Shown here one piece after another: positions 2,231 through 62,521 of a stretch of DNA of 64,000 bases. Under the pieces are notes generated by a model. That model made no database searches. It saw only the letters and a list, made by a program, of their open reading frames with translations, and had not been told where the DNA came from. The position numbers and the translations under genes are program-made. The stretch's first letter is position 1. Each line of letters begins with the position of its first letter. Source of the DNA: an uncultured Candidatus Saccharibacteria bacterium (lineage in GTDB: Bacteria > Patescibacteriota > Minisyncoccia > UBA6257 > 1-14-0-10-40-38); assembly GCA_964543265.1 (NCBI GenBank), contig CAZIWN010000001.1, positions 104,577-168,576 of the forward strand, in the 5' to 3' direction.

Positions 2231-4126
2231 ATGGGAAAAATAATTGGTATAGATTTAGGAACAACTTATAGCGCAGTAGCAACAGTCGAAGGAGGATCTC
2301 CTAAGATTTTAGAAAACAGCGAAGGAATAAGAACTACTCCTTCTGTTGTCGCCATTTCAAAATCTGGCGAAAGATTAGTTGGAGTTTTAGCCAAGCGTCA
2401 GTCCGTTACAAATCCAAAAAACACCATCTTTTCAGTTAAGAGGTTGATTGGAAGAAAATATAACGATCCAGTCGTAACTCGCGACAAGGCTTGGCTTCCT
2501 TATGAAATAAAAGAATCTTCCGCTGGTTCGGTTGAGGTAAAAATGGGAGATAAATATTATAAGCCAGAAGAAATTTCTGCCATGGTCTTGCAGAAGCTAA
2601 AAGCCGATGCCGAAGCGCGTCTCGGGGAAAAAGTTGAAGAAGCAGTTATTACTGTTCCAGCTTATTTCGACGACTCTCAAAGACAAGCCACAAAAAACGC
2701 TGGAGAAATTGCTGGTCTTAAAGTTAGAAGAATTCTTCCAGAGCCAACAGCCGCCGCTTTGGCTTATGGATTAAATAAAAAGAAAAATGAAAAAATTGTA
2801 GTTTACGATTTTGGAGGCGGAACCTTCGACGTTTCAGTCTTGGAAGTCGGCGACGACACTATCGAAGTTAGGGCCACTGGCGGAGATACTCATTTAGGAG
2901 GAGACGATATAGATAAAATTATTATTGAATATTTAGTTAAAGAATACAAAGCTCAAGAGGGAGTAGATTTATCTAAAGACGCTTTAGCTCTTCAGAGATT
3001 AAAAGAAGCAGCCGAACGCACCAAGCACGAGCTTTCAACATCTTTTGAGGCAGAAGTTAATCTTCCATATATTACTTCAGACGCTTCTGGTCCAAAACAC
3101 TTCTTAATTAAAATTACCAGAGCAAAATTAGAAGAACTTACCAAGAGTTTAATCGATAGATCTATAGAATTATTAGATAAAACCATCAAGGAATCTGGAA
3201 TAGCTAAAGGAACTATAGATGAAATAGTTTTAGTTGGAGGTCAAACCAGAATGCCTGCTATTGCCGATGCTGTTAAAAAATATTTCGGCAAAGAACCGCA
3301 TAAAGGAGTAAACCCAGATGAGGTTGTGGCTTTAGGAGCTTCTATTCAGGCAGAAATTTTATCAGCCAAGGATGAAGGCAGACGTCCAGAAGGAGAGGTT
3401 AAAGATGTTTTGCTTTTAGACGTAACCCCACTTTCATTAGGAATAGAAACTCTCGGAGGAGTTTTCACAAAAATCATAGAAAAAAATACAACCATCCCGA
3501 CATCCAAATCTCAAACCTTCTCAACAGCTGCAGATAACCAGCCAGGAGTAGAGATTCATATCTTACAGGGAGAGCGCGAAATGGCTGCTGACAATAAAAC
3601 TTTAGGTAAATTTATGTTAGATGGAATTCCTCCAGCTCCTCGTGGAATTCCGCAGATTGAAGTTTCTTTCGATATAGACTCAAACGGAATCTTAAATGTT
3701 TCCGCTAAAGATAAAGCTTCTGGAAAATCTCAGTCAGTCAAAATCACAGCTTCAACCAATATGTCTAAAGAAGAAGTTGAAAGATTAAAAAACGAAGCTG
3801 CAAAATTTGCCGAGGAAGATAAAAAGAAAAGAGAGAATGCCGAAATTAAAATCAAGGCAGATCAATTAATCTTCCAGGCAGAACAAGCTTTGAAAAATGG
3901 AGGAGATAAGATTGCCGCAGACGTTAAAGATTCTGTACTTAAAAAAATAGAAAATTTAAGATCTATTAAAGACGGCATCGAATTCGAAAAAATAAAAACA
4001 GCTACCGACGAGCTTTTCACCGAAATGCAAAAAATAGGAGAAGCTATGTATAAAAAAGAAGAACCAAAGGCCGAAGGAAATAAGGATGGTGCCGCTGGAG
4101 CAAATCCTTCTGGAGAAAATAAATAA
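2231..4126 (+). CDS. dnaK: Chaperone DnaK (Hsp70).
   Basis: Motifs [29 protein letters not shown] and [16 protein letters not shown]. Confidence 0.97.
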
Positions 4127-6363: not shown

Positions 6364-6483
6364 TCATCCCGTTGCAATAAACCACAGAATGATGAGAAAG
6401 ATGATGGTTGACCATCTCATGTTGAGGATCGAGCACTTCCATGGCTCAGGTTCGCTTACTGTTGGTTCTGGTCGCCTTTTCAT
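6364..6483 (-). CDS. 39-aa hydrophobic peptide (MKRRPEPTVSEPEPWKCSILNMRWSTIIFLIILWFIATG) in a GC-elevated segment.
   Basis: SD site AAGGGGG lies 6 nt upstream of the ATG. The C-terminal half is hydrophobic. It is absent from the 60-aa ORF track and I translated it by hand. Confidence 0.35.
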   Translation of the reverse strand: MKRRPEPTVSEPEPWKCSILNMRWSTIIFLIILWFIATG

Positions 6484-6522
6484 TTTTAACCCCCTTAATC
6501 TAATGAACTAATTTTATTATAT

Positions 6523-6585
6523 AAATTAAAACCACCCACAGCAACCGTAGTCGCTGGGGTGGTTCTGCGTCAGATTGTCTGACGC
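6523..6585 (-). terminator. Two tandem hairpins downstream of the islet lipoprotein gene: GCGTCAGA/TCTGACGC, then CCACCC...GGGTGG followed by a T-tract on the minus strand.
   Basis: Perfect 8-bp and 6-bp stems. The minus-strand sequence continues as TTTTAATTT. Confidence 0.6.
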
Positions 6586-6878
6586 TAGTTCGTCGCGGAG
6601 ATGGTCTCCGCGAGGCGCTCGAGGCCATCGTTCAGCTTCTCGAGGCCGTCGATGATCTTCTCCATCTCGATCGTCTGCTCGCGCATCCGCTCGAGATCGG
6701 TGTCGTCGCTCTTGACGACGTTCGGCAGCATGCGGTCGCGCATCTCGTCGTAGGCCTCCACCTTCTTCGTCGGCACCTCCTCCTTGGCGGGGGAGACGCA
6801 GCCGACGGACAGGAGGCAGAAGAAGGCGGCGATCCAGAACCCGTAGTTGAACGCGAGCATGTTTCGAAGCAAACGCAT
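6585..6878 (-). CDS. Small secreted or lipoprotein-like protein of 97 aa, GC-rich codons.
   Basis: Signal peptide with a lipobox-like LLSVGC. SD site CAAGGGAAAGGGAAAG is upstream of the ATG, and a consensus promoter lies upstream on the minus strand. Confidence 0.55.
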   Translation of the reverse strand: MRLLRNMLAFNYGFWIAAFFCLLSVGCVSPAKEEVPTKKVEAYDEMRDRMLPNVVKSDDTDLERMREQTIEMEKIIDGLEKLNDGLERLAETISATN

Positions 6879-6987
6879 TTTCTTCTTTCCCTTTCCCTTG
6901 GAAAGCTATTCTCTCGCAAGAAGGCGCTCGCCCTCATCGCAAAAGAATGCTTATTTGTTAATGTTCAATCTAACCCTAACCTTTGTA

Positions 6988-7017
6988 ATTATAGCACAAT
7001 ATATTGATATTTGTCAA
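6988..7017 (-). promoter_or_regulatory. Near-perfect sigma70 promoter with extended -10 (TTGACA-18-TGcTATAAT), copy A of the repeated promoter module.
   Basis: Read on the minus strand: CTATTGACAAATATCAATATATTGTGCTATAAT. Confidence 0.7.
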
Positions 7018-7020
7018 TAG

Positions 7021-7074
7021 ATAAGAAAGCCAATAAAATAATAGCCCCGGGTGCGCATTTGCGCATTCCGGGGC
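7021..7074 (-). terminator. Terminator of the 123-aa islet gene: GCCCCGG...CCGGGGC stem with an inner GTGCGCA/TGCGCAT palindrome, followed by a T-rich tract on the minus strand.
   Basis: Read from the sequence. Confidence 0.6.
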
Positions 7075-7080
7075 AGTAGT

Positions 7081-7452
7081 TCAGCTCGAAGCGGTAGCGG
7101 TGGCGGGGAACATCTCGCGAAGTTCCGCGCGAATCTCCTGGGCGAACCTGGTCATCGCCAAGCGCCATTCATCTTCATCGGTATGGATCCTGAGCTTTTT
7201 GGGCCAATACTTCGGGTCGCGCTTGGCCTTGGCCATGTCTGCAAGGTAGACCATCGCATCGAATCCTGTCTTGGCGTTGTTGTCTCCCGGCTTCAGTTCG
7301 AAGTCGAACGACATCTCGCCAATCCCATCGAAATCGGGCGCGGTCACGAAAGCAACGAGCTCTTCGTAGCTTCCAAGACCAAGCCATCCTTCCGGCGCCT
7401 GCTTCTTGCCGGGAAGAAAATGAAGGTCGTCAAGAAAAACATTCCTTTCCAT
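7081..7452 (-). CDS. Hypothetical 123-aa protein, GC-rich codons, unknown function.
   Basis: Clean ORF with SD site AAGGGA upstream of the ATG. Its own promoter (TTGACA-17-TAAACT at 7503-7531, minus strand) and its own terminator flank it. Composition is unlike that of the flanking genes. Confidence 0.5.
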   Translation of the reverse strand: MERNVFLDDLHFLPGKKQAPEGWLGLGSYEELVAFVTAPDFDGIGEMSFDFELKPGDNNAKTGFDAMVYLADMAKAKRDPKYWPKKLRIHTDEDEWRLAMTRFAQEIRAELREMFPATATASS

Positions 7453-7574
7453 TTTTCCCTTGTCTCCGCTTGGGTTTTTCTTTCCCTTAGGTGCTGACGT
7501 ATAGTTTAGCCCAAAACACCCAATTTGTCAAAGTTATATTAATCTACTATCTTATGCTAAAATTACATAAATAA

Positions 7575-8558: not shown

Positions 8559-8774
8559 TTATCTTATTTCAATCAATTTCTTCTTATATCGTAACCCAGA
8601 CTTGATAAATAAGCTATTTTTAGGGATTTTTAGATATTCTGCCAATATTTCAATCACTTTCAAGTTTGCCTCCATATCCTTAGCTTTTGCTTTAGTTTCT
8701 ATCTTATAAGAATTTTCTCCAATCTTTAAAATAGAATCCTTTTTCGCGTTAGTTTTTACGGTTATTTCAATCAT
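8559..8774 (-). CDS. DUF167/YggU-family small protein.
   Basis: Pattern I.VKV.P.AKK..I.....Y.I...A.A.D.EAN..VIE.LA..L. Confidence 0.55.
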   Translation of the reverse strand: MIEITVKTNAKKDSILKIGENSYKIETKAKAKDMEANLKVIEILAEYLKIPKNSLFIKSGLRYKKKLIEIR

Positions 8775-8804
8775 ATTTTATGATTATGGCACGTTATATT
8801 TTTT

Positions 8805-8833
8805 TTGACAAAAACATGATTTATCTGTATTTT
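8805..8833 (+). promoter_or_regulatory. Candidate promoter TTGACA-17-TATTTT for the islet ORF 8912-9421.
   Basis: Consensus -35 element with a weak -10. Confidence 0.4.
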
Positions 8834-8911
8834 AAATACAGCTCTTACGGTTAGAATCGAATCAATCAAACAAGCTTCCATTAAGTTGAGAAGCATAAGG
8901 GGGAGACTGAA

Positions 8912-9421
8912 ATGCCGGCAACCGCAACAATGATCGAAGTCTTCCAGATTCTCGGATTGGAGATGATAAAGCGTCCAGTTTTTTCGGATCTGCTTCCAAA
9001 AACTGGATGCGTGCCAGATAAGAGAATCACGGAACAAGTAATGGGCGAGCCGTATTCTCTATCAGCTACAAGAGATGACCATTGGCGATCCGGAACAAGA
9101 GAAATCGCTCTAGTTGAACATCCGCCAGTTTGGTCAATGTCTACTGTCTGCGCGAATTCAGCCAAGCTCGGTCTGGGTCTATTGGATCCATACGATGTTC
9201 TATATTTCGCCATCAAGCATCCAGGGGTCCAAAGGTCTGGCCCAATCGCCTTCGTTCATCAGCCGCTTTTTCTAGGCGAGAACCGGAGAGGCCTTTTTGC
9301 TCTCGTTCTCGGTTTTGATGGGCAAGACAGAACCATTAATCTTGTCAGCTGGTTCGATACTTGTGATGCCGTTCCCGGAGTTCGCTACGCCCTTTTGAAG
9401 AGGCCAGAGAAGAAGAAGTAG
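8912..9421 (+). CDS. Hypothetical 169-aa protein, intermediate to high GC, unknown function.
   Basis: Strong SD site AAGGGGGAG lies 7 nt upstream of the ATG, and a terminator follows the ORF. Its composition is foreign to the host. Confidence 0.55.
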   Translation: MPATATMIEVFQILGLEMIKRPVFSDLLPKTGCVPDKRITEQVMGEPYSLSATRDDHWRSGTREIALVEHPPVWSMSTVCANSAKLGLGLLDPYDVLYFAIKHPGVQRSGPIAFVHQPLFLGENRRGLFALVLGFDGQDRTINLVSWFDTCDAVPGVRYALLKRPEKKK

Positions 9422-9433
9422 TTCAAGGTCTCA

Positions 9434-9474
9434 AAATCCCGCGCATGAGGTAAGTCCAAAGCGCGGGTTTTTTA
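9434..9474. terminator. Bidirectional terminator CCCGCGC...GCGCGGG flanked by A- and T-tracts.
   Basis: Sits between convergent genes. Confidence 0.75.
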
Positions 9475-9885
9475 ATTCAAAAACAAATACGCCCAAATTG
9501 CTACGAAAAGAATGGGCAAAAATAGGAGCCAATTCCATAAGCGGTTTTTTCCAATCAAAACATCTTTAACAGATCCTTCTTTATGTGGCCACATCTGAAA
9601 ATCTTCATATCCAAGTTCTTTTTCAATCGCCCCGATTCTTCTAATCCAGGCATCTCTCCAAAGTTTCTGTTTCCTTAATAAGAAAAACCAATAGAAAGAC
9701 AGGATTAATCCCGTAAGCTGGGCGATATGTAGATATTCTGGGCTGACTTTGCCGGCAAATATCGCCACAAAGATGGCGCTTTCAATCGCAAAGAAAAAAT
9801 TGTATAGGCGATACAGCCCATCTATTTCAGATCGAACTTGAGCGATAAACCGATCATACTGCTTCTCCAAAAATTCTTTATTCAT
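9472..9885 (-). CDS. Hypothetical membrane protein of 137 aa.
   Basis: Two to three TM helices. The start overlaps the upstream gene by ATGA. Confidence 0.5.
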   Translation of the reverse strand: MNKEFLEKQYDRFIAQVRSEIDGLYRLYNFFFAIESAIFVAIFAGKVSPEYLHIAQLTGLILSFYWFFLLRKQKLWRDAWIRRIGAIEKELGYEDFQMWPHKEGSVKDVLIGKNRLWNWLLFLPILFVAIWAYLFLN

Positions 9886-10463
9886 TTTACATCAGTTTTT
9901 CTTTCTACTTTTAGAAGGGAGCTTGGAAATTCAACCGTCAACTTAGCCAATAAGTTCATTGGATTTTTATTGTTTTTATCAAATCTAAACTGTTCGTCTT
10001 CAAAATCTAGGAAAATTTGAGAATAATCATCCTTGGTTTGCTTACCTTTTATTTTCTCTCCAAAATATATAACCGCCATTCTCTTGCCATTTTTTTCACC
10101 AAGTCTTGCTTGTACCCAATAATTATCATCTTCAGCTTCGTCTATTACTTTAGTTGGGGGTAAATCAAGAGAGTGTATTGTGTAATCTAATGTGAGATAT
10201 CCATGCCAAGCTTTTTCTACATCTTTTCTGATCTGTCGATGATCTTTTTTGCATTCGTATTTTTTATCACATTTAACACATAAATAGCTATTTAATTCTT
10301 TATCTAAAATGTTGTGGCAATTCTGGTTTGGACAAAGAGGATTATCCCCAATAAATGCGACGCCATTTGGAGCAATAACTGGCATCCACAAAACCCCATG
10401 ACTTTTATATAATCTTTTTTCCTCCATATTATCTATAACTTGTTGGGCGGTGAGGCCTATCAA
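9882..10463 (-). CDS. Hypothetical protein of 193 aa with Cys/His clusters (CPNQNCHN, CVKCDKKYEC).
   Basis: ORF in native AT-rich sequence. Translationally coupled to its neighbours. Confidence 0.5.
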   Translation of the reverse strand: MIGLTAQQVIDNMEEKRLYKSHGVLWMPVIAPNGVAFIGDNPLCPNQNCHNILDKELNSYLCVKCDKKYECKKDHRQIRKDVEKAWHGYLTLDYTIHSLDLPPTKVIDEAEDDNYWVQARLGEKNGKRMAVIYFGEKIKGKQTKDDYSQIFLDFEDEQFRFDKNNKNPMNLLAKLTVEFPSSLLKVERKTDVK

Positions 10464-10620
10464 GTAGTTCTCCGTTAGGATCTCTTAATATTGTTAAATT
10501 TCCACAATTAGGACAAATTTCTAGATTTACAGAAGATCCCTTATTAATTTCAATCTTTCCCCTAAAAGAACAGTTTTTACAAAAAACATATTCATTGTAA
10601 GTAGTTTTATTATCTGTCAT
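10429..10620 (-). CDS. Small zinc-ribbon protein of 63 aa (CxxC...CPNC).
   Basis: Two CxxC pairs. First gene of a three-gene minus-strand operon. Confidence 0.5.
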   Translation of the reverse strand: MTDNKTTYNEYVFCKNCSFRGKIEINKGSSVNLEICPNCGNLTILRDPNGELLDRPHRPTSYR

Positions 10621-10702
10621 ATTTTTTTTAGATATTTTTTAACCCTTGTAATAAGTCTACAAATCAACGAAGACACTTGCAATAGATGATATAATTTATC
10701 AA

Positions 10703-11437
10703 ATGGCTAGGCTTAACGGAAAAAACAGTGGCTATTCCAATAAAATGGAAAAAACTACAAATATATTTTCTATTATTTGGTTATTAATGATTTTCTGGTT
10801 ATTTTATATATATTTTAAAAATATAAATAAAATTAATAATTTTCCAAGCCTAATTACTGCTTTAATTATTTTTAGTCCATTAACTGCATTTACCTATATT
10901 CAAATTATAAAATGGCAGAAAATTTCTAAAAAATTTCATCAAGGACAAGTCGGCGAAGCTTTAGTTCTTTTAGAATTATTAAAATTGCCGGACAATTATT
11001 CCATACTCCAAGACATAAAGTTTAATGGCGAATATTGGAATACTGATTTTGTTGTAATTGGTCCAACTGGGATTTTCACTATAGAGGTAAAAAGTCATAA
11101 GGGGTTTATTGAATTTAATAAAATAGAAAGACAGTTAACAATAAATAACTTACCATTTGAAAAAAATATTATATTTCAAGCAAACAGACAAGCAATGGGA
11201 TTACGAAGGTATTTAATGGAGTCAATAAATTTTTTTACACATATTAATCCCGTTATTGTTTTTTCAAGCTATTTTACTAAAATGCGCTTTGGTATGAAGT
11301 CAGTTGCTGATACGGGAGTTCAAGTTATTCAAAAAAGATGGCTAAGAAAAGTTATAGAAAAAGGAACAGGAAATCTAGATAATGAAATTATCTTAAAAAT
11401 AGAAAAAGCGATGATTAATTTAACATCTTTAAATTAA
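10703..11437 (+). CDS. Membrane-anchored NERD (nuclease-related domain) protein.
   Basis: N-terminal TM helices, then GEALVL..L..LPDNY.ILQDIKF......DFVVIGPTGIFTIEVKSHKG, which matches the NERD signature. Confidence 0.7.
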   Translation: MARLNGKNSGYSNKMEKTTNIFSIIWLLMIFWLFYIYFKNINKINNFPSLITALIIFSPLTAFTYIQIIKWQKISKKFHQGQVGEALVLLELLKLPDNYSILQDIKFNGEYWNTDFVVIGPTGIFTIEVKSHKGFIEFNKIERQLTINNLPFEKNIIFQANRQAMGLRRYLMESINFFTHINPVIVFSSYFTKMRFGMKSVADTGVQVIQKRWLRKVIEKGTGNLDNEIILKIEKAMINLTSLN

Positions 11438-11442
11438 TCTTT

Positions 11443-12048
11443 CTATGTCTTATCTTTTCTAAATTTTCTAAGCACAAAATATAAAATCACCACAAACACC
11501 GCCCCAGAGACATCCATCAGCATATCTTTTTGTGCATCCCAAATATCTCCCTGCGAACCCAAGAAAGCCGCCCCAGCATCTCCTCCCCAAATTTCTGCAT
11601 ATATCCACTCAATCCATTCATAAAGAACTGCCACAAAAGATATGGTAAAAATCGCATAAGTTGAAGCAATCCATTTTTTAGCCACAAGATTTCTACTTAA
11701 AAGATATTCCATTATAGGCAGGGCATAGAAGCCAACGGTAAAATGGGCAACTCGGTCAAACATATTCCTCTCAAAACCAAATAAATTTCCAAACCAATCA
11801 AATGGAACTTTTTCAAAAGTATAGTGTCCACCGATGGTATGTAAAAACGGCAAGACAAACATAAAAGCATAAGCCGTATTAGAAAAACGAATATTCTTAA
11901 AGTATAAAAATACGATAAAAGCGACGAGTATAAAAATCGGCCCATTCTCCGCATACCAAACATCTCGCGAAAATGGATGAATTCCCGCAATTATAAATTC
12001 AATAACATATATAGCCAGTAATAAGTGCGGAAAATACTTTTTAAGCAT
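11443..12048 (-). CDS. DUF2238/YjdF-family membrane protein.
   Basis: Motif GGHYTFEKVPF..W......RN.FDR..HF..GF. Confidence 0.5.
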   Translation of the reverse strand: MLKKYFPHLLLAIYVIEFIIAGIHPFSRDVWYAENGPIFILVAFIVFLYFKNIRFSNTAYAFMFVLPFLHTIGGHYTFEKVPFDWFGNLFGFERNMFDRVAHFTVGFYALPIMEYLLSRNLVAKKWIASTYAIFTISFVAVLYEWIEWIYAEIWGGDAGAAFLGSQGDIWDAQKDMLMDVSGAVFVVILYFVLRKFRKDKT

Positions 12049-13797: not shown

Positions 13798-14115
13798 ATG
13801 ATTAATTGGAGCAGTAAAGAAATTGAAAAATTAGTTACAGCAATTCTTCTTTTAGAAACAGAAGAAGATGCCAAAACATTTTTAAGAGATTTAATGACAG
13901 AAAAGGAAATTAGAGAATTTTCAAAACGCTTACAAGTCGCAGAAATGCTTAGTAATAAAATCTCTTATTCAGTTATTGAAAAAGAAACAGGTTTAAGCTC
14001 AACCACAATTGCCAGAGTTGCCAAATGGCTAAACGGCAAAGAGGGTGGATATAAAAATATTTTAGATAAACTGCATCGCCATAGCGCCTTACAGGTCGGT
14101 AGAAGGTTGTCTTAA
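13798..14115 (+). CDS. TrpR-like YerC/YecD family DNA-binding protein.
   Basis: Motif ...EEDAKTFLRDLMTEKEIREFSKRLQVAEML.......IEKETGLSSTTIARV. Confidence 0.75.
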   Translation: MINWSSKEIEKLVTAILLLETEEDAKTFLRDLMTEKEIREFSKRLQVAEMLSNKISYSVIEKETGLSSTTIARVAKWLNGKEGGYKNILDKLHRHSALQVGRRLS

Positions 14116-14216
14116 TGTTGGATAAATCATTAAGCTAACCTTCTCCTGAGTTGGAGAAAAGGGTCTGCTGGTCACCCTAAAAGACTAGCAACGGTTCTTT
14201 GACAAGGGAGAGAGTC

Positions 14217-14417
14217 ATGAACAGTCACATGCACCCGCACGATCACGATCACGGCGTTCGCGCTTCCGACGATCGGCATCACGGTGTTCACGGCGACCAC
14301 AGTGATCACAGCGACAGTGGCCACAGGCACCACAGGGGTGCGCACGGTCACGATCACAAGGCGCACGGTCACCACCACGGGTCGGTCCACAAGCAGAAGA
14401 GGGGCGGCGCGCACTGA
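14217..14417 (+). CDS. Histidine-rich 66-aa peptide (about 38% His) with GC-rich codons; likely metal binding.
   Basis: SD site AAGGGAG lies 6 nt upstream of the ATG at 14217. The run is MNSHMHPHDHDHG...HGHDHKAHGHHHGSVH. A terminator follows. Confidence 0.55.
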   Translation: MNSHMHPHDHDHGVRASDDRHHGVHGDHSDHSDSGHRHHRGAHGHDHKAHGHHHGSVHKQKRGGAH

Positions 14418-14493
14418 TTTCGTATTCCGCGATTTGTCAGAGATGTCATCATGAAGTCTTTTCCAAGTCCGAAGTCCGGTATTCAATACGAAA

Positions 14494-14538
14494 AAGGAGT
14501 TGATCACGATACGTCGAGATCAACTCCTTTTAATTTTT
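14494..14538. terminator. Bidirectional terminator AAGGAGTTGATC...GATCAACTCCTT followed by a T-tract.
   Basis: 12-bp perfect stem. Confidence 0.8.
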
Positions 14539-14775
14539 AAATAAAGATATTTTATCAACTCTTTTTAGTTTTTTAATCGCTGCCTCTCTCTGTTTAGCTT
14601 CTCGTAAAGTTTCAAAAGTTTCGTGATATACAAGCTTAACCGGACGGCGTATCTTCGTGTAGTGCGCCCCAGATTTTAATTCATTATGTTCTCTCAATCT
14701 TTTTTCTAAGTTATTAGTTGATCCTACGTAAAGTGTTTTATCTGCGCATTCAAGAATATAGGTAAAATATGGCAT
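14530..14775 (-). CDS. Stand-alone GIY-YIG domain protein (YhbQ/UPF0213-like).
   Basis: Motif YFTYILECADKTLYVGSTNNLEKRLREHN. Confidence 0.85.
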   Translation of the reverse strand: MPYFTYILECADKTLYVGSTNNLEKRLREHNELKSGAHYTKIRRPVKLVYHETFETLREAKQREAAIKKLKRVDKISLFKN

Positions 14776-14781
14776 TGCGGC

Positions 14782-14851
14782 TGCGGGACCTGGGCTCGAA
14801 CCAGGATACCAGCTTTCAGAGAGCTGTGTCCTACCATTAGACGATCCCGCA
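14782..14851 (-). tRNA. tRNA-Gln (anticodon CUG) with a U1:A72 pair; CCA is not encoded.
   Basis: Cloverleaf folded by hand: acceptor TGCGGGA/TCCCGCA, U8, anticodon stem CAGCT/AGCTG with loop CTCTGAA, and T-arm CTGG TTCGAGC CCAG. Confidence 0.8.
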
Positions 14852-25248: not shown

Positions 25249-25407
25249 ATGTTTGAAAATTTTAAAAATTGGTTTAAAGAAAATGAAAAGAAGATATTAT
25301 TTATCCTTATAATATTTCTAAGTATCACTTTAAGTTTAGGATTAGGATTCTTGCTTGGAAAAAAATCAAAAGTCACACCAATTATTATCGAGAAAAATTC
25401 AAATTAA
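25249..25407 (+). CDS. 52-aa single-TM peptide (MFENFKNWFKENEKKILFILIIFLSITLSLGLGFLLGKK...).
   Basis: Hand-translated small ORF in native AT-rich sequence, followed by a strong terminator. Confidence 0.35.
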   Translation: MFENFKNWFKENEKKILFILIIFLSITLSLGLGFLLGKKSKVTPIIIEKNSN

Positions 25408-25414
25408 ATTTTAA

Positions 25415-25456
25415 GTGCCACCTCCAGCGCTTGCGCTAAATAGGTGGCACTTTTTC
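25415..25456. terminator. Terminator GTGCCACCT...AGGTGGCAC followed by TTTTT; also T-rich on the minus strand.
   Basis: 9-bp perfect stem. Confidence 0.8.
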
Positions 25457-25466
25457 TTCCCCGTCT

Positions 25467-25688
25467 TCAGTTCAGGACGGTGACGAATCTCCCGATTGGT
25501 GTGAAGACTTGTTCACCGTCGACGATCTCGAGTTGTCCGAGAACTTCGCCACATCCCGGTACGGGGCAAGAAACGTTTGAGTGTTTGCAGGACGGGGCAG
25601 CGACCTTGCACTGGCCATACCTTCCTTCCCACTTGCAAACGCACCTGATCTGCGTCTCCGCACCGCACTCCTTCTGACTCATCGTCAT
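25467..25688 (-). CDS. Cys-rich 73-aa protein with 8 Cys (CGAETQIRCVCKWEGRYGQCKVAAPSCKHSNVSCPVPGCG) and GC-rich codons.
   Basis: SD site AGGAGG lies 9 nt upstream of the ATG at 25688. It is wedged between a terminator and the rnpB promoter. Confidence 0.5.
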   Translation of the reverse strand: MTMSQKECGAETQIRCVCKWEGRYGQCKVAAPSCKHSNVSCPVPGCGEVLGQLEIVDGEQVFTPIGRFVTVLN

Positions 25689-25761
25689 TTCTTTCCGCCT
25701 CCTGAAGCTGGATTCGAAACTAGACATAATAATAACAATAATTAAGCCAAAAAGGCAAGAT

Positions 25762-25790
25762 TTGTCTATTTTTAATATTTATGGTATACT
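25762..25790 (+). promoter_or_regulatory. rnpB promoter TTGTCT-17-TATACT.
   Basis: Spacing places the transcription start near 25797, which is the first nucleotide of the P1 helix. Confidence 0.55.
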
Positions 25791-25796
25791 TTTAAA

Positions 25797-26141
25797 GTCG
25801 CTTAGGTGATTACACGGCATCGCAAAAAAATGCCGTGAGGAAAGTCTGGACTCCTGTCTTGCGAGAAATCGCAAGTAAACGTACCGGTTAAAAGCCGGCT
25901 GGGTAATCCAAGAGGTGCGAAAAGTGACGCTCAAAGACGAAAGAATTTGAGAATCCGCTTGCGGATTAACCTTCTCTATAGTGAAGGAGAGGGGTGCAAC
26001 GGCTAAATCCTTACGAGGTGCAAGATCGTGCTCTAAATTAAAACTTAGAGAGAATCGCTTGAGCCTTAAAGTAATTTAGGGCCTAGATAAATTATCACCG
26101 CTTCGCCGAAAGGCGGAAACAGAATCCGGCTTATTAGCGAC
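25797..26141 (+). ncRNA. rnpB: RNase P RNA (bacterial type A).
   Basis: Conserved GAGGAAAGUCUGGACUCC (P4 5' strand), ACAGAAUCCGGCUUA (P4 3' strand) and a P1 pairing GTCGCT/AGCGAC, followed by a terminator. Confidence 0.85.
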
Positions 26142-26155
26142 AAAAAATATCAGAA

Positions 26156-26180
26156 GTCCGCGCCTAAAGCGCGGATTTTT
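26156..26180 (+). terminator. rnpB terminator TCCGCGC ctaaa GCGCGGA followed by TTTTT.
   Basis: Read from the sequence. Confidence 0.8.
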
Positions 26181-26196
26181 GATATATGGTTTAATA

Positions 26197-26225
26197 TTGC
26201 TTTTATGACAACAATCTGTTATTAT
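26197..26225 (+). promoter_or_regulatory. Candidate promoter TTGCTT-17-TATTAT for the small membrane ORF.
   Basis: Read from the sequence. Confidence 0.4.
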
Positions 26226-26269
26226 GATTAACAGTTCTTCGGTTAAGGTCATTGGGAGGGAAGGCCTTG

Positions 26270-26458
26270 GTGGAATTCGGAAAGAGGCTTTGCTTCGCTC
26301 TGGTCTGGACTGTTTCCTGGGTTCTTCCGAAGGAATCTAGGGACGAGGAAGAAGAGGTGAGTGGTGTCTTGAAGCTTCTCCTCTTCGCCCTTGTCGGAGT
26401 TGGAACGGCCTTGGTTCTTCACTTCTATCGGATGAGGCAAAACTTCATCCAGATTTGA
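26270..26458 (+). CDS. Small two-TM membrane protein of 62 aa from the GTG start (68 aa if the TTG at 26252 is used), GC-rich.
   Basis: SD site GGGAGGGAAGG lies 5 nt upstream of the GTG. Two hydrophobic helices are separated by an acidic EEEE loop. A terminator follows. Confidence 0.45.
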   Translation: MEFGKRLCFALVWTVSWVLPKESRDEEEEVSGVLKLLLFALVGVGTALVLHFYRMRQNFIQI

Positions 26459-26477
26459 AAGAAGGCCAAGTGTCTCA

Positions 26478-26558
26478 AATGGCGTGCTGCCACCAAGTAG
26501 CGCGCCATTTTTTTTGTAAAAAAAGACCACCCATTACTCGCTCGCGAGCTAGGGTGGT
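26478..26558. terminator. Pair of convergent terminators sharing a central T8/A7 tract: ATGGCG...CGCCAT followed by T8 on the plus strand, and ACCACCC...GGGTGGT followed by a T-tract on the minus strand.
   Basis: Read from the sequence. Confidence 0.65.
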
Positions 26559-26570
26559 TTTCTGTCGCTG

Positions 26571-26789
26571 TTAACGAGGAGTAGTCGCTTCCCCGAACAG
26601 CATCGGTACTTCTATCAGATGCTTTTTATTGCATCCCTTCTTGCATTTCGGATGCGTCGAGCTCCCAAAATATGTATTGCCCTTTGGGATCTTACCACCG
26701 CACCCAGTGCAGGTACGATCCAAATGGGCAACATGATGTTCTGGAACCTCATCATCCTCTTCGTCGCTTCCGCCGTTGCCTCCACGCAT
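26571..26789 (-). CDS. Small zinc-ribbon protein of 72 aa from the ATG (CTGCGGKIPKGNTYFGSSTHPKCKKGC), acidic N-terminus.
   Basis: SD site GGGGAGGG lies upstream of the ATG. Its own promoter TTGAAA-17-TATAGT (26845-26873, minus strand) and its own terminator flank it. Confidence 0.5.
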   Translation of the reverse strand: MRGGNGGSDEEDDEVPEHHVAHLDRTCTGCGGKIPKGNTYFGSSTHPKCKKGCNKKHLIEVPMLFGEATTPR

Positions 26790-26876
26790 TGGGTTCGCCC
26801 TCCCCGTGAATGGATTGATGGTCAAGAAACGTGTACTGATATTTACTATAAAACATTCTTAAATAATTTTCAAAAT

Positions 26877-26920
26877 GAAAAGGCCCGGCTAGAACTATAC
26901 GTTCTATAACCGGACCTTTT
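26877..26920. terminator. Bidirectional terminator with a long imperfect stem GGCCCGGCTAGAAC tatac GTTCTATAACCGGACC, flanked by A4 and T4.
   Basis: Read from the sequence. Confidence 0.65.
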
Positions 26921-26946
26921 GCTCCGTCTTGCGGAGCCGTCGCCTT

Positions 26947-27153
26947 TCAGGCGGTGGCAACTGCGAGTTGCCGGCTCTCGGCGCGGAGCTCTGCGAGTTC
27001 TCCGCTCGAGAACAGATTGAGCAGTTCAGGCCACGTCGGCATCCTGCCGAGCTTCCGAGCCTTCCGCGCGATGATCTGCCGCATCGTGGGCACCGCGACC
27101 TCTTCTGAGCACTGATCGCAACCATTCGCGCAGCACTTGGATTCGCACGCCAT
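26947..27153 (-). CDS. Cys-rich 68-aa protein (N-terminal CESKCCANGCDQC, basic/helical C-terminus).
   Basis: A GGGGGG tract lies 7 nt upstream of the ATG. Copy B of the consensus promoter sits about 90 nt upstream. Confidence 0.5.
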   Translation of the reverse strand: MACESKCCANGCDQCSEEVAVPTMRQIIARKARKLGRMPTWPELLNLFSSGELAELRAESRQLAVATA

Positions 27154-27246
27154 CGTAGTTCCCCCCGAATGCCATTCTGATTTCGCCCTAAGGCTCGTCA
27201 GAGGACTTGTGAATGACTAGGGCCAATCCCTTATCATCACTCCTAT

Positions 27247-27276
27247 ATTATATCATACAATATATTAATTTGTCAA
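27247..27276 (-). promoter_or_regulatory. Near-perfect sigma70 promoter TTGACA-18-TGaTATAAT, copy B of the repeated promoter module.
   Basis: Read on the minus strand: CTATTGACAAATTAATATATTGTATGATATAAT. Confidence 0.7.
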
Positions 27277-27469
27277 TAGATAAAGCATAAAAAGCTAATA
27301 AAATAAGGATTTTAATATAAAAAATCTTAAAAATAAGGATTTTTTAACAACTCCAAATTTTCACCTCTTTACAAATTAAATTTACTTTGATATAATATGG
27401 AAATGAAGGTTGGACTCAAATCGTTATTAATAGTAGCGATGAGTCCAAAAAATAATTTAAAATAACTAT

Positions 27470-33026: not shown

Positions 33027-34484
33027 ATGGACTCATTAAGAGAAGAAAGAATTAAAAAACTAAACCTGCTTCGCAAGGCCAATATCGATCCATATCCTCC
33101 AAGAATTAAAAGAGATTTTGAAATTAATTCAGTCATATCGAATTTTAATAAATTTACTAAAGCCAAAAAGAAAATTTCTTTAGTTGGGCGCTTGGTTGGT
33201 TTAAGGGTTCAAGGAGCTTTATTTTTCGCTGACTTAAAAGATGAATCTGGAAAGATTCAAATTTTAGGTAAAAAAGATAATCTAAAAAATTTTGATATTT
33301 TTAAAGACGCCATAGATATAGGTGATTTTGTCGAAGTTTCTGGAGTTCCTTTTATTACCAAAAGAGGAGAAAAAAGCATAGAGGCAAAATCAATTAATAT
33401 TATCGTAAAAAGTTTGCGCCCAATACCATCAGATTGGTATGGCATACAAGACATTGAGCTTAAATTAAGAAAAAGATATTTAGATATTTTAGCCAATGAG
33501 GATATAAAAGAATTATTTAAAAAGAAAACTATTTTTTGGGCCACTTTCAGGGATGAATTAAAAAAGGAGGGTTTTTTAGAAGTTGAAACTCCAATTTTAG
33601 AGACTACTCCAGGAGGAGCTGATGCTGAGCCATTTAAGACGCATCACAACGCTCTTGATACTGATTTTTATTTAAGGATATCTTTAGAGATTGCTTTAAA
33701 AAAACTTTTAGTTGCTGGATATGAAAAAATTTTTGAAATAGGCAGAATTTTTAGAAATGAAGGCATAGACGCAGAACACTTACAAGACTATACCCAGATA
33801 GAATTTTATTGGGCTTATAAAGACTACAACGATTTAATGAAATTCATCGAACCTCTTTATAAAAAAATTATTAAAAATACTTTCGGAACTCTAAAAACCG
33901 AATGGAGGGGTATGAAAGTTGATTGGGGGAAAAAATGGCAAAAAATTTCATATTATGATCTTTTCAGAGAAAAATTAAGCATTGATTTAGAAAAAGCTTC
34001 AACCGCCGACCTAGAAAAGAAGGCTAAAAGTTTAAATCTAAAAATAGAACCAAATTTAAATCGTGGAAGATTAATCGATATTCTTTTCAAAACAATTCGC
34101 AAAGAGATTATTCAACCAGTGTTTTTAATCGACCAACCAGCAGAGCTTGAGCCGTTAGCTAAGCGCAATCCAGCTTCTCCTCATAAAGTTGAGAGGATGC
34201 AGATTATTGCTTGTGGAACAGAGCTTGGTAAGGGATTCTCTGAAGCTAATGATCCGTTAGATCAACGCGCTAGATTTGAAGAGCAAATGAAGATGAGGGA
34301 AGCGGGAGATAAAGAAGCTCAGATGTTAGATGAAGAATTTCTAGAAGCTCTTGAATACGGAATGCCTCCAACTGCGGGTTTTGGTATTTCGGAAAGATTA
34401 TTCGCTGTTTTAGCCGATAAACCAGTTCGAGAATGTGTATTTTTCCCTTTAATGAAAAGAGTTTCTAAAAAAGAAGACCAATAA
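33027..34484 (+). CDS. lysS: Lysyl-tRNA synthetase (class II).
   Basis: OB-fold N-terminus, class II motifs and GRIFRNEGID. Confidence 0.9.
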   Translation: MDSLREERIKKLNLLRKANIDPYPPRIKRDFEINSVISNFNKFTKAKKKISLVGRLVGLRVQGALFFADLKDESGKIQILGKKDNLKNFDIFKDAIDIGDFVEVSGVPFITKRGEKSIEAKSINIIVKSLRPIPSDWYGIQDIELKLRKRYLDILANEDIKELFKKKTIFWATFRDELKKEGFLEVETPILETTPGGADAEPFKTHHNALDTDFYLRISLEIALKKLLVAGYEKIFEIGRIFRNEGIDAEHLQDYTQIEFYWAYKDYNDLMKFIEPLYKKIIKNTFGTLKTEWRGMKVDWGKKWQKISYYDLFREKLSIDLEKASTADLEKKAKSLNLKIEPNLNRGRLIDILFKTIRKEIIQPVFLIDQPAELEPLAKRNPASPHKVERMQIIACGTELGKGFSEANDPLDQRARFEEQMKMREAGDKEAQMLDEEFLEALEYGMPPTAGFGISERLFAVLADKPVRECVFFPLMKRVSKKEDQ

Positions 34485-34502
34485 CGGTCTTCTTTTTTAA
34501 TC

Positions 34503-34532
34503 TTGACAATATATCTATTTAGGGAATAAAAT
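34503..34532 (+). promoter_or_regulatory. Consensus-like promoter TTGACA-18-TAAAAT at the start of a GC-rich islet.
   Basis: Read from the sequence. Confidence 0.6.
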
Positions 34533-34590
34533 TAAATTCCACGCGCTTTAAGAGGAAGCGCGCAGAAATCACTTGTCGAAGGGAGATTGA

Positions 34591-34821
34591 ATGGGTGCGA
34601 AGAGGGGATCTACGGTGAGGCAGGGATCTGTTGGCGGCGCCTCTTCTTCTACTGTCTTGAACCGACTGGCTCAACCCGACTGGAAGTTCAAGGGGGTTGA
34701 ACCGATTCGCGGGGCGATGAAGGGGTGCAGGTCTTGCACCTTCGATGGCGTGCCTCACGGTCAGTTCAGGGTGGGTGGTCCGAGGGGCGTCGTCTCCAGG
34801 TGTCCTTGCACGAACAGGTGA
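34591..34821 (+). CDS. Small 76-aa ORF (CRSC...CPC) in a GC-rich islet; coding status uncertain.
   Basis: SD site GAAGGGAG lies 6 nt upstream of the ATG. The Gly/Arg/Ser/Val-rich composition is typical of a random GC-rich translation. A 5' UTR hairpin CGCGCTT/AAGCGCG precedes it and a strong terminator follows. Confidence 0.35.
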   Translation: MGAKRGSTVRQGSVGGASSSTVLNRLAQPDWKFKGVEPIRGAMKGCRSCTFDGVPHGQFRVGGPRGVVSRCPCTNR

Positions 34822-34825
34822 TTTT

Positions 34826-34866
34826 TCAGCCCGGCTTTCCGAAAAGGAAGCCGGGCTGTATAATTT
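34826..34866 (+). terminator. Terminator CAGCCCGGCTTTCC gaaaa GGAAGCCGGGCTG followed by TATAATTTAT.
   Basis: 13-bp near-perfect stem. Confidence 0.8.
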
Positions 34867-34872
34867 ATATAA

Positions 34873-35256
34873 ATGAAAAAAGTTATGGTTTTCGGCGACT
34901 TCGATGGCCTTCATGAGGGTCATAGATTTTTTCTACGAAGCGCCAGAAAGTATGGAGATTATTTAATAGTGGCAGTTTCTCAAGATCATATTATCAAGCA
35001 TTTAAAAGGAGAATATCCAATAAAGAATTTTGCCGAACGCTTTGAGCACTTAGAAAATTATGACGATGTAAATCAAGTTGTCATTGGTGATCCGGAAAAC
35101 TCCCCAATTAATTTGATAAAAAAATATAATCCCGATATAGTTGTCTTATCTAAAAATCAAGAATTTTTACAAAACGAGATAGAAAGAAATTACGAAAATT
35201 TTTCTAAAAAAATTGAATTAAAGATAGTAGACGTTGGAGAAATAAAAATTTATTAA
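34873..35256 (+). CDS. Cytidylyltransferase-like (HxGH) nucleotidyltransferase domain protein (FMN adenylyltransferase-like).
   Basis: Motif VFGDFDGLHEGHRFFL. Confidence 0.55.
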   Translation: MKKVMVFGDFDGLHEGHRFFLRSARKYGDYLIVAVSQDHIIKHLKGEYPIKNFAERFEHLENYDDVNQVVIGDPENSPINLIKKYNPDIVVLSKNQEFLQNEIERNYENFSKKIELKIVDVGEIKIY

Positions 35257-38399: not shown

Positions 38400-38445
38400 A
38401 AATTAAACCGCCAGGACCCTTGTTGGGCGCTGGCGGCGTTTAGTT
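38400..38445. terminator. Bidirectional terminator CCGCCAG...CTGGCGG.
   Basis: A-tract upstream; T-tract on the minus strand. Confidence 0.65.
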
Positions 38446-38451
38446 CAATAC

Positions 38452-38802
38452 TTAGCCCGTAGGCTCAGTATACGTAGCATCAAGAATAAAACTCTTCTTT
38501 TGATCAAAGGTTCCACTGAATTTATCATCTCCGCGCTTAACAGCAATTCTAACAGGAACCCACACGTGTCCGAATGTTGCATCTGCCTTGCGATACATCG
38601 TACAGGTTACCGAAACCGGAAGCAGGCCCTGAGCTGGTCCACGATTTTTAAGACTTAAGGTAAATGTTCTGATGTCCAGAAACCGCGTAGCTTCGATATC
38701 CATAGCATTCCACACGGAGTCATTATCTCCGTCAACCGTGCTAATTGCGATTTGCGTCATCCTGATTGCCAAAAGCACGCCAGCAGCCAAGCTCATTTTC
38801 AT
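38452..38802 (-). CDS. Secreted 116-aa protein (signal peptide MKMSLAAGVLLAIRMTQIAIS), GC-rich codons.
   Basis: SD site GGAG lies 6 nt upstream of the ATG at 38802. Copy C of the consensus promoter lies upstream. Confidence 0.5.
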   Translation of the reverse strand: MKMSLAAGVLLAIRMTQIAISTVDGDNDSVWNAMDIEATRFLDIRTFTLSLKNRGPAQGLLPVSVTCTMYRKADATFGHVWVPVRIAVKRGDDKFSGTFDQKKSFILDATYTEPTG

Positions 38803-38940
38803 CGGACATCTCCTTGTCAAAAGGGGATTCACTCCAGGGGTCAACCCAGAAAGTGGCAGCCATCACGGCAGCACCTTAGAAGCAAGAATAAGTCTTCTTT
38901 CCAAAGTGCCACCGTGACAACCTCTCAATATGCTTATAAA

Positions 38941-38970
38941 ATTATAGCACAATATTACTATAAAAGTCAA
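38941..38970 (-). promoter_or_regulatory. Near-perfect sigma70 promoter TTGACT-18-TGcTATAAT, copy C of the repeated promoter module.
   Basis: Read on the minus strand: CTATTGACTTTTATAGTAATATTGTGCTATAAT. Confidence 0.7.
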
Positions 38971-39029
38971 TAGTCACAAAACCCATATAAATTAGTCAAA
39001 ATAGGTCATTTAGGTTATTATAAATTCCA

Positions 39030-41353: not shown

Positions 41354-41382
41354 TTGACATTTAGATTCCTTATTGTTAAAAT
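41354..41382 (+). promoter_or_regulatory. Consensus promoter TTGACA-17-TAAAAT.
   Basis: Read from the sequence. Confidence 0.65.
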
Positions 41383-41389
41383 TGTAGGA

Positions 41390-41707
41390 CAAGCGAGTTT
41401 AGAGGTCGCAAGTCAGCCTTCTGACGCCAAAGTTCTCAAGCTCCTTCTTCGCACTTCGCAAGCGTCTTTAGGTCTAAAAAATGGACTCTCGACCTTCATC
41501 GGGAGTTGACCTTCCGTTTTCACTGGTCACAAATCCAGTGACCGCTGGCTAACCGATTACGACCAGGTTATCCGACACGGTGAGTAATCTCTGGGACAAT
41601 TAGATGTAACTAACCAGGGAGCGGTAAGAAATTGCGCCTCAAAAACTCGCGCGGTGCCCCAAGCTTCGAGCAGGGTGAAAGACAACCCTGCTCGAAGCTA
41701 CTTTTTT
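41390..41707 (+). ncRNA. Candidate ncRNA of about 320 nt (GC about 50%), bounded by the consensus promoter and a 15-bp perfect hairpin terminator AGCTTCGAGCAGGGT...ACCCTGCTCGAAGCT followed by T6.
   Basis: No ORF longer than 28 aa on either strand and no SD site. Identity unknown; I found no match to tmRNA, SRP RNA or RNase P RNA motifs. Confidence 0.45.
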
Positions 41708-41723
41708 AAAATAAATATAAAAC

Positions 41724-42719
41724 ATGAAATTATCCATAGGTATAGTTGGTCTCCCAAACGTTGGTAAATCGACTTTATTTAAAATAATCACAAAAAACGA
41801 AGTTAATATAGCTAATTATCCATTTTGCACAATTGATCCAAACGTAGGAGTCGTTTCTGTACCAGATGAAAGATTGGATAAATTAAGCGATATGTCTAAG
41901 TCTGCCAAAAAAGTACCAGCTATTATTGAATTTTATGATATTGCTGGTCTTGTTAAGGGCGCCTCTTCTGGTGAGGGATTGGGTAATCAGTTTTTATCTC
42001 ACATCAAAGAAACGGAGGTAATAGTCCAAGTATTAAGATGTTTTTCTTCTGAAGAAATAATTCACGTTGAAAACAGAGTTGATCCTTTAACTGATTTAGA
42101 AATTATAAATACCGAATTAATTTTAAAAGACTTAGACGTTGTCTCTAAAAGATTTGCCAAAATAGATTCAGAAATAAAATCAGGCAACAAACAGGCAGTT
42201 AAAAACAAAGAGGTTTTAGCTAAAATAAAAGAAAAGCTTGAAAAAGGGGAATTAATTAGCGATTTTAGAGATGAATTAATAGTTAAAGAACTCCAGCTTT
42301 TAACTGCTAAAAAGCAAATCTATTTTTTAAATGGTAAACCAGAAGATGTTAGTGAAAAATTGAAAGCCAAAATAGCTTCTTTAAATTGTGAGTATGTCGT
42401 TTCTGACTTATCTACCGCAGAAAATATTCCGGAACTGATTAAAAAAGCTTACAAAGTTCTAGATCTTATTAGTTTTTTCACTACTGGAGAAGACGAATCA
42501 CGCGCTTGGACTATTAAGCGTGGTTGGAAAGCGCCACAAGCTTCAGGGGTTATTCATACCGACTTTGAAAAGAAATTTATTCGCGCAGAGGTAATTGCTT
42601 CAGATAAATTATTAGAATGCGGTTCTTGGGTTAAAGCAAAAGAAAAAGGATTAATCAGGGTAGAGGGTAAAGAATACGAGGTGAAAGATGGTGATGTTTT
42701 AGTTGTCCGACACAGCTAA
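41724..42719 (+). CDS. ychF: Ribosome-binding ATPase YchF (Obg-family GTPase).
   Basis: Motifs GIVGLPNVGKSTLF and ANYPFCTIDPNVG, plus a C-terminal TGS domain. Confidence 0.9.
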   Translation: MKLSIGIVGLPNVGKSTLFKIITKNEVNIANYPFCTIDPNVGVVSVPDERLDKLSDMSKSAKKVPAIIEFYDIAGLVKGASSGEGLGNQFLSHIKETEVIVQVLRCFSSEEIIHVENRVDPLTDLEIINTELILKDLDVVSKRFAKIDSEIKSGNKQAVKNKEVLAKIKEKLEKGELISDFRDELIVKELQLLTAKKQIYFLNGKPEDVSEKLKAKIASLNCEYVVSDLSTAENIPELIKKAYKVLDLISFFTTGEDESRAWTIKRGWKAPQASGVIHTDFEKKFIRAEVIASDKLLECGSWVKAKEKGLIRVEGKEYEVKDGDVLVVRHS

Positions 42720-45332: not shown

Positions 45333-45366
45333 AAAGGCAAATCTTGTATAGATTTGCCTTTTTAAA
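45333..45366 (+). terminator. Terminator GGCAAATCT tgtata AGATTTGCC followed by TTTTT.
   Basis: Read from the sequence. Confidence 0.8.
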
Positions 45367-45379
45367 TACTATATGTTAT

Positions 45380-45638
45380 CCTTATAAGCGTCGGTAGGGC
45401 TGACTTTGTCTTAGCTCTGATAAGTGGGACACTTTGTGCCCACAACGAAATTCGGCGAATAGAGAGGCGTGGTCGCAAGATCACAATAGCTCCTCTCGTC
45501 AGAGTACGAGCAAATCAGCCCTACCGACACCATTTCAAAAACAAGGCACACGGTGCTGCTGGTACCCCCCCGTACCAGACACCGCTGAGTCACTGGTCCG
45601 ACGCTACCCGCAAGGGCGCGCTCGGACCTATTTTTTTA
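45380..45638 (+). ncRNA. Candidate structured ncRNA of about 260 nt. A 14-bp long-range helix (45390-45403 pairing with 45515-45528) encloses 111 nt. Then a GGTAC-C6-GTACC hairpin and a terminator GTCCGA...TCGGAC followed by T7.
   Basis: No credible ORF. Helices read directly from the sequence. Possible promoter TTGTAT-18-TACTAT (45344-45373). Confidence 0.4.
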
Positions 45639-45649
45639 CAATCTTAATT

Positions 45650-45676
45650 AAAACCCCGCCAATCGGCGGGGTTTTC
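45650..45676. terminator. Bidirectional terminator AAAACCCCGCC aatc GGCGGGGTTTT; it also terminates typA.
   Basis: Read from the sequence. Confidence 0.8.
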
Positions 45677-47479: not shown

Positions 47480-47526
47480 ATTGGGTTGAGCGTTTATTCT
47501 ACTATATTTTGATTTAAAGAGTCAAT

Positions 47527-47554
47527 TTGACTAAAGATAATATTTGTCTATAAT
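47527..47554 (+). promoter_or_regulatory. Consensus promoter TTGACT-16-TATAAT.
   Basis: Read from the sequence. Confidence 0.6.
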
Positions 47555-47599
47555 AATAAAACCCTTAATTTTGAGGGGGTAAAAGGGAGGGATTGATAG

Positions 47600-47791: not shown

Positions 47792-47796
47792 GCCAA

Positions 47797-47838
47797 ATAC
47801 TCCGATAGGCCACGGGTCTGTCGGAGTATTTTATTTTC
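47797..47838 (+). terminator. Terminator ATACTCCGA...TCGGAGTAT followed by TTTATTTT.
   Basis: Read from the sequence. Confidence 0.75.
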
Positions 47839-62520: not shown

Positions 62521-62521
62521 T

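Follow-up and report, generated by a model that had tools for sequence, protein, structure and literature searches.

ORF169 is an open reading frame (ORF) of 169 codons, found within a GC-rich islet of a 64-kb stretch of contig CAZIWN010000001.1 from an uncultured Candidatus Saccharibacteria bacterium; this stretch, about a fifth of a contig of at least 307 kb, is hereafter referred to as the window. The gene has a DUF167 gene (PF02594) as its left neighbour and a gene for an 8xMP membrane protein (PF24838) as its right neighbour, and the islet that carries it also contains a promoter match, a leader and a hairpin (Table 1). The original prediction for this locus, which placed here a gene with a Shine-Dalgarno site, a TTGACA promoter and a bidirectional terminator between the DUF167 gene and a membrane gene, is borne out, the terminator being a likely shared one: the 510-nt frame is intact and free of frameshifts, all the peptides quoted from its product are present, AAGGGGGAG stands upstream of the ATG, the promoter match and the hairpin are where they had been described, and ORF169 matched no housekeeping enzyme. 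The sequence of ORF169 is 100% identical in two further assemblies, SRR12487045 and DRR736439, and is therefore not an assembly chimera. Reading of the N-terminus reveals neither an obvious signal peptide nor an obvious membrane segment, no predictor having been run.

The stem of the downstream hairpin is formed by the arms CCCGCGC (9438-9444) and GCGCGGG (9461-9467), with an energy of -17.3 kcal/mol and z = -3.2 relative to shuffled sequences. It is located within the islet, its T-run overlaps the stop codon of the 8xMP gene (9472-9474), and it is likely to be a terminator common to ORF169 and the convergent 8xMP gene; on the minus strand the T-run (ATTTT) is weak. A consensus terminator scan did not pick up this hairpin (9438-9467) because of its 16-nt loop.

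Sequence searches of Pfam, PHROGs, NCBIfam, PADLOC and PDB with the ORF and with its family returned no matches, and a word-indexed search with ORF169 returned only the ORF itself; homologues came to light only in an exhaustive HMMER search. Among 1.84 billion representative proteins phmmer identified six true homologues (E-values of 2.6e-8 to 4.6e-4), and a profile built from these six retrieved 191 proteins of 140-215 amino acids (aa), every one of them labelled hypothetical and lacking a Pfam domain. The six share the motif ...GLERPTYEDALYFGxxHPExQxxxPxVFLHEP...RxLxLxxFDxxW...FAFVR. We define the family here as an unannotated domain of ~140 aa (alignments A2 and A3). The earlier statement that ORF169 matches no recognised family is accordingly not supported: the protein is one of a family with over 190 members, for which Pfam, NCBIfam, PHROGs and PADLOC hold no model, even though the family includes genuine variable proteins of diversity-generating retroelements (DGRs) from many lineages of the Candidate Phyla Radiation (CPR).

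A family hidden Markov model (HMM) made without the query scores ORF169 at 43.9 bits, and identity to any homologue is at most about 38%. All five invariant residues of the family (L88, F114, H116, L133 and R140) are kept in ORF169, while the 27 nearly invariant columns comprise 10 identical, 10 conservative and 7 non-conservative positions, the last including R90L, P91L and E94Y. When the family motifs GLERPTYEDALYFG, HPExQ, VFLHEP, R-L-L-FD-W and FAFVR are compared, the ERP motif proves to be gone from ORF169, which also lacks ~13 residues of the N-terminal β-hairpin segment. A neighbour-joining tree, computed without support values, sets a single clade of CPR copies apart from a high-GC clade, and the branch of ORF169 is the longest; of the family members found, ORF169 is the most divergent.

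A scan of GTDB species genomes yielded 49 loci, of which ~27 belong to Rokubacteria/Methylomirabilota and 12 to CPR/Patescibacteria (one unclassified bin counted), the others being scattered. IMG/VR viral contigs contained no family members, and a scan of the window for paralogues found none, ORF169 being the sole family member in the 64 kb. An identity as a phage moron was rejected, as there is neither a PHROG match nor a family member in IMG/VR, and that of a defence gene found no PADLOC match. ORF169 has no Pfam match at E ≤ 1, and neither FGE-sulfatase (PF03781) nor DUF1566 is among the families matched by 119 members at E ≤ 0.1.

Several members show additional architectures. Among the homologues from high-GC soil bacteria, the domain runs in frame into a class I S-adenosylmethionine (SAM) methyltransferase at L036, L022 and L052 (Pfam-confirmed for L036) and into a GNAT acetyltransferase at L023 and L046 (Pfam-confirmed for L023), a hint that modifying enzymes may use it to recognise a substrate or small molecule; in P0002 and P0004 the domain occurs twice in tandem. 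In ~20 of the 38 non-CPR loci (including L005, L013, L018, L022 and L023) an enoyl-CoA hydratase family gene lies less than 3 kb from the family gene, often together with CoA-transferase and acyl-CoA dehydrogenase genes, a neighbourhood that may represent either lineage synteny or a functional link. One locus labelled Nitrosotalea sp. (L051) is on a contig with a GC content of 0.71, and its family member is of the kind characteristic of the Methylomirabilota clade; this contig is probably mis-binned rather than archaeal.

We searched the homologue loci for pairs of variable region and template repeat (TR) with blastn (word size 9, E ≤ 1e-4), each gene against its own locus. At five CPR loci (L009, L031, L045, L048 and L053), whose lineages are Saccharibacteria, Moranbacteria, Portnoybacteria, Paceibacterota and Falkowbacteria, a 3'-terminal stretch of 91-128 nt recurs downstream of the gene with 81-84% identity (n=5), the end of the gene copy and the start of the downstream copy being separated by roughly 330-460 nt. 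Of the mismatches, 19/20, 16/16, 19/20, 22/23 and 19/20 are at positions where the downstream copy has an adenine. This copy, the TR, is rich in AAC codons and is adjoined by bAvd (PF22296) and RVT_1 reverse transcriptase (RT) genes. Given mismatches almost confined to adenines and the adjacent bAvd and RVT_1 genes, these five loci are textbook DGRs, and the CPR branch of the family thus includes DGR variable proteins. The RT and Avd of L048, used as tblastn queries, match the other four linked loci. The first survey of CPR DGR variable proteins was reportedly that of Paul et al. in 2017. Our findings at the CPR loci are consistent with those of Roux et al. (2021; PMC8144416), who described a CPR-restricted clade of DGRs with targets devoid of recognisable domains and with variable regions in C-type-lectin (CLec) folds.

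None of the 37 non-CPR loci examined has a pair of variable region and TR (0/37), and within flanks of 4-8 kb per side no TR or RT is present at six or more CPR loci (L035, L054, L055, L042, L003 and L007); half or more of the CPR copies are without an adjacent DGR. The only neighbours common to the CPR homologue loci are DGR parts (avd, RT and the TR region), save one ORF common to L035 and L042. On the Saccharibacteria contig L009 there are two 100% identical copies of the target gene (53-709 and 3315-3971), only one of which is beside the TR, Avd and RT, and L042 has several DGR-less paralogues on one contig (848-1602 and 5799-6254) with ~70% DNA identity.

ORF169 is likewise devoid of a neighbouring DGR. 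When the segment 8800-9480 was compared with the window by blastn (word size 7, E ≤ 10), at settings more sensitive than those that had revealed the pairs at the five linked loci, no repeat was found; the conserved 3' motif of the TRs is absent from the window with up to 3 mismatches, and tblastn of the L048 RT and Avd gave a best E-value of 0.31 in the same 64 kb. A local DGR at ORF169 was accordingly rejected. An HMM of the five DGR-linked targets scores ORF169 at 36 bits, and the protein aligns, with indels, through their variable region (the C-terminal ~45 residues). At the columns with TR-adenine codons in at least three of the five targets it has E123, R125, G127, F129, G134-D136, D139, T141, N143, S146, D149-C151, A153, P155, G156 and R164. 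The 3' end of its variable-region equivalent, GTTCGCTACGCCCTTTTG, differs from the conserved TTCGCGTTCGTCCGCAA of the DGR loci. The ORF is 100% identical between the window, SRR12487045 and DRR736439, which are consensus assemblies, and contigs do not break within the region.

AlphaFold run on the single sequence of ORF169 gave a predicted local distance difference test (pLDDT) score of 31, while with a 119-sequence alignment block-mean pLDDT values of ~68-93 were obtained over residues 61-169, highest (86-93) at residues 61-120 and 151-169 and lower (68-74) at residues 121-150. The core so modelled is predicted to adopt a CLec fold. Foldseek comparison of the model with PDB and BFVD gave no significant match. 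ORF169 is unlike the structurally characterised DGR variable proteins of CLec/FGE type Mtd, TvpA (2y3c), TaqVP and AvpA: no sequence relationship to them is detectable (best E = 0.94 in a PDB profile search), its domain is far smaller (~105 residues), and it matches neither of the Pfam families named above.

Among known systems, ORF169 resembles most closely in kind the CPR DGR targets (clade 2 of Roux et al. 2021, PMC8144416), with which it shares sequence homology, small size, the lack of a recognisable Pfam domain and of a signal peptide or transmembrane segment (for ORF169, as judged by reading), a CLec-like C-terminal domain and a GC content above that of the CPR host. Unlike them, it has no TR, RT or Avd in the window, no N-terminal extension of ~60 aa, and no conserved FAFVRK-encoding 3' end, and it has indels in the variable-region equivalent. 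The non-DGR branch from Rokubacteria/Methylomirabilota and other high-GC soil bacteria is similar to ORF169 in having a ~140-aa domain, mostly stand-alone and with no adjacent DGR. Conversely, that branch keeps GLERPTYEDALYFG...VFLHEP...RRELGLEGFD almost invariant, whereas ORF169 has lost several of the motif residues; gene GC in that branch equals genome GC, and some of its members are fused to the SAM methyltransferase or GNAT acetyltransferase. ORF169 is therefore best described as a divergent DGR-target-type protein of CPR bacteria, of predicted CLec fold, with no adjacent DGR.

The composition of ORF169 is clearly atypical. Its GC content is 0.491 and its GC content at third codon positions (GC3) 0.467, compared with 0.335±0.034 and 0.257±0.047 in 33 native genes, a deviation of ~4.5 standard deviations on each measure. 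The same protein recoded with native codon usage would have a GC of 0.408 and a GC3 of 0.275; therefore about half of the GC excess reflects codon choice (synonymous) and about half amino-acid composition. A GC excess over the flanks was found in 15 of 15 CPR copies, ranging from +0.04 to +0.16 (mean +0.124±0.033), so GC-richness is a trait of the family, and the excess of ORF169 over the native-gene mean (+0.156) is at the upper end of these offsets. Gene GC follows host GC in the CPR members (r = 0.72, p = 0.002, without phylogenetic correction), and in high-GC hosts the difference between gene and genome GC is ~0. Within the DGR cassettes of L048, L009, L031, L053 and L045, the target gene has a GC content of 0.48-0.58 and the TR of 0.47-0.59, and the avd and RT genes are at 0.36-0.45, at or below the host flanks. 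The 'foreign composition' of the original prediction thus stands as far as unusual GC, GC3 and GC-rich codons are concerned, but not as a sign of foreign origin, since all CPR members are GC-richer than their hosts: it is a weak indicator of such an origin, and the composition of ORF169 does not point to a non-CPR donor. Adenine avoidance in the TR would account for the GC-richness of the variable region only.

In the closest genome available ('Candidatus Pacebacteria bacterium', GCA_009694925.1; L115) gene order is retained, and the proteins of the region are highly similar to those of the window (TruB 87%, DUF167 94%, malic enzyme 93%, DUF2238 94%, DnaJ 85% and 8xMP about 90% identity). The blastn breakpoints nevertheless enclose the islet: window positions 8566-8780 correspond to L115 positions 7076-6862, and 9468-9786 to 6390-6072. 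In place of the islet L115 has 471 nt of ~0.30 GC with an unrelated ORF that encodes a Gmad2 domain and shares the strand of DUF167, and the family HMM finds no match in L115. As a different, AT-rich gene fills the slot there, ORF169 is accessory, and so its gain in this lineage, by insertion or by exchange, was recent. The promoter region (8781-8850) is partly conserved in L058, one close relative found in a metagenome scan with TruB and stemming from a Hainich groundwater lineage; its sequence then diverges, and the contig ends exactly at the expected start of the slot gene. Two features expected of a horizontally acquired islet are thus present, namely an unusual composition and the lack of a counterpart in the orthologous slot of a close relative. 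Signs of mobility were not found: the sole tRNA of the window lies at 14779-14851, no boundary repeats occur among the listed repeat families, and the neighbouring DUF167 and 8xMP genes are not mobility genes. The whole stretch from TruB to DUF2238 (window 8559-12048, L115 4145-8011) is variable between the two relatives: p193 (9882-10463), p63 (10429-10620) and a NERD protein (10703-11437) were not found in L115 (tblastn, E ≤ 1e-3), which instead carries ORFs of 175 aa and 114 aa in the interval from DUF167 to TruB, together with a YgjP-like gene and an 8xMP gene that seems to be split.

On these grounds we consider ORF169 to be, more likely than not, an expressed CLec-fold binding protein of fixed sequence that has no adjacent DGR. 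It would be translated as a small stand-alone protein whose sequence does not vary, and would bind its ligand by the C-terminal β-hairpin face, that is, the face which its DGR-linked relatives diversify.

ORF169 could instead be a relic, once a DGR target or lectin-fold gene and now in decay, with a frame that is still open and a product that no longer has a function. Its position on the longest branch of the tree, the loss of the ERP motif and of the N-terminal β-hairpin segment, the lack of a close relative among the 1.84 billion representatives and its absence from the sister genome L115 would all be compatible with decay. The intact 510-nt frame, however, is preceded by a promoter match and a strong Shine-Dalgarno site and followed by a terminator, all five invariant residues are retained, 20 of the 27 nearly invariant columns show identity or a conservative exchange, and the core is modelled confidently, all of which makes a relic unlikely.

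Remote targets are known for other DGRs, and a DGR elsewhere in the genome might similarly rewrite positions 9266-9406 in trans, in which case ORF169 would possess a live variable region. The homology to genuine DGR targets does span the variable region, DGRs are enriched in CPR genomes (PMC8144416), and the window covers only about a fifth of the contig. Conversely, those 64 kb contain no TR, RT or Avd, whereas in the five linked loci the TR begins within ~460 nt of the end of the variable region; ORF169 shows indels relative to those TRs and ends in GTTCGCTACGCCCTTTTG rather than in a sequence resembling TTCGCGTTCGTCCGCAA, and the three assemblies are identical, with no contig breaks in the region. 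We therefore regard a remote DGR as rather unlikely. A further suggestion arises from the GC excess, which is stable whether or not a gene is linked to a DGR, is partly synonymous and does not extend to avd and RT: an unrecognised process, or selection, might keep DGR-target-type genes GC-rich and adenine-poor over their whole length, one possible cause being that scaffold codons are shielded from adenine mutagenesis when the boundaries of the TR shift. On this view ORF169 would still be a live remote target, or else a target 'frozen' recently, and we give this idea, too, little credence.

A recent transfer from a high-GC donor outside the CPR, such as Rokubacteria or Methylomirabilota, would give ORF169 the function of the non-DGR branch and the GC content of the donor. 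Those two groups account for more than half of the 49 loci, with gene GC equal to genome GC, ORF169 scores almost equally with the HMMs of CPR and of high-GC members (37.0 and 35.8 bits), and the islet is missing from the sister genome. The GC content of ORF169 (0.49) is nevertheless far below the 0.63-0.76 of non-CPR members, no homologue approaches it in identity, its excess fits the CPR offsets, which track host GC, and no mobility gene, tRNA or flanking repeat lies at the borders; such a donor is quite improbable. Finally, GC-rich patches of AT-rich genomes are often RNA genes, but the reading of this segment as a structured RNA or other non-coding element is effectively refuted, as Rfam gives no match even at E ≤ 1 and there is significant homology at the protein level, with motifs conserved across more than 190 sequences.

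The window, whose GC content is 35%, contains about nine further GC-rich islets (200-nt peaks of 0.51-0.65; Table 1), most of which carry small ORFs without Pfam matches and with GC3 of 0.43-0.79, as single-gene insertions among native genes. The gene pair of islet 1 is also present in L115 (9090-9945), where it is GC-rich too; its identity is 50-52%, compared with 85-94% for the flanking core, and these genes are either evolving very fast or have been replaced by xenologues. A motif of 37-53 nt occurs at or inside the edges of three GC-rich islets (6987-7039, 27247-27283 and 38940-38992), its first copy reading, on the minus strand, TTGACA-18 nt-TATAAT with the extended -10 TGTGCTATAAT. It looks like a strong promoter shared by islet genes, although the similarity may be that of the promoter consensus only.

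Table 1. Positions in the window of the features of the ORF169 islet and of the further GC-rich islets
Feature	Position	Strand	Remarks
Islet	8781-9467		No DNA homology to the L115 slot; contains promoter, leader, ORF and terminator hairpin (GC profile, blastn)
Sigma-70-like promoter match, TTGACA-17 nt-TATTTT	8805-8833	+	10/12 consensus positions; predicted by consensus only
Promoter match, TTGTCA-17 nt-CATAAT	8811-8783	-	Directed at DUF167/TruB; overlaps the plus-strand match
Shine-Dalgarno AAGGGGGAG	8897-8905	+	ATG 6 nt further 3'; read from sequence
ORF169, divergent member of unannotated C-type-lectin-fold (predicted) family, 169 aa	8912-9421	+	
Predicted C-type-lectin-like α/β core, residues ~60-165	9089-9406	+	
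DGR variable-region equivalent, residues ~119-165	9266-9406	+	Predicted ligand-binding face, sequence fixed; alignment with five DGR-linked targets
GC-rich hairpin region	9433-9473		7-bp stem, 16-nt loop, AAAA before and TTTTTT after
Further GC-rich islets	6401-7540, 14061-14560, 25361-27280, 34481-34960, 38401-38960, 41361-41740, 45361-45760, 47521-47920, 62461-63980		
Islet 1 genes: cREC_REC (PF20274) protein and 97-aa protein	6585-6878, 7081-7452	-	

What had appeared to be an orphan gene becomes, with these results, a member of a definable family. The DGR-less CPR copies, together with the large non-DGR sister clade of soil bacteria, offer a comparison set for the passage from a fixed binding domain to a hypermutable one, or the reverse. 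They also carry a warning for the genes of this family, namely that GC-richness alone is no evidence of a recent foreign origin.
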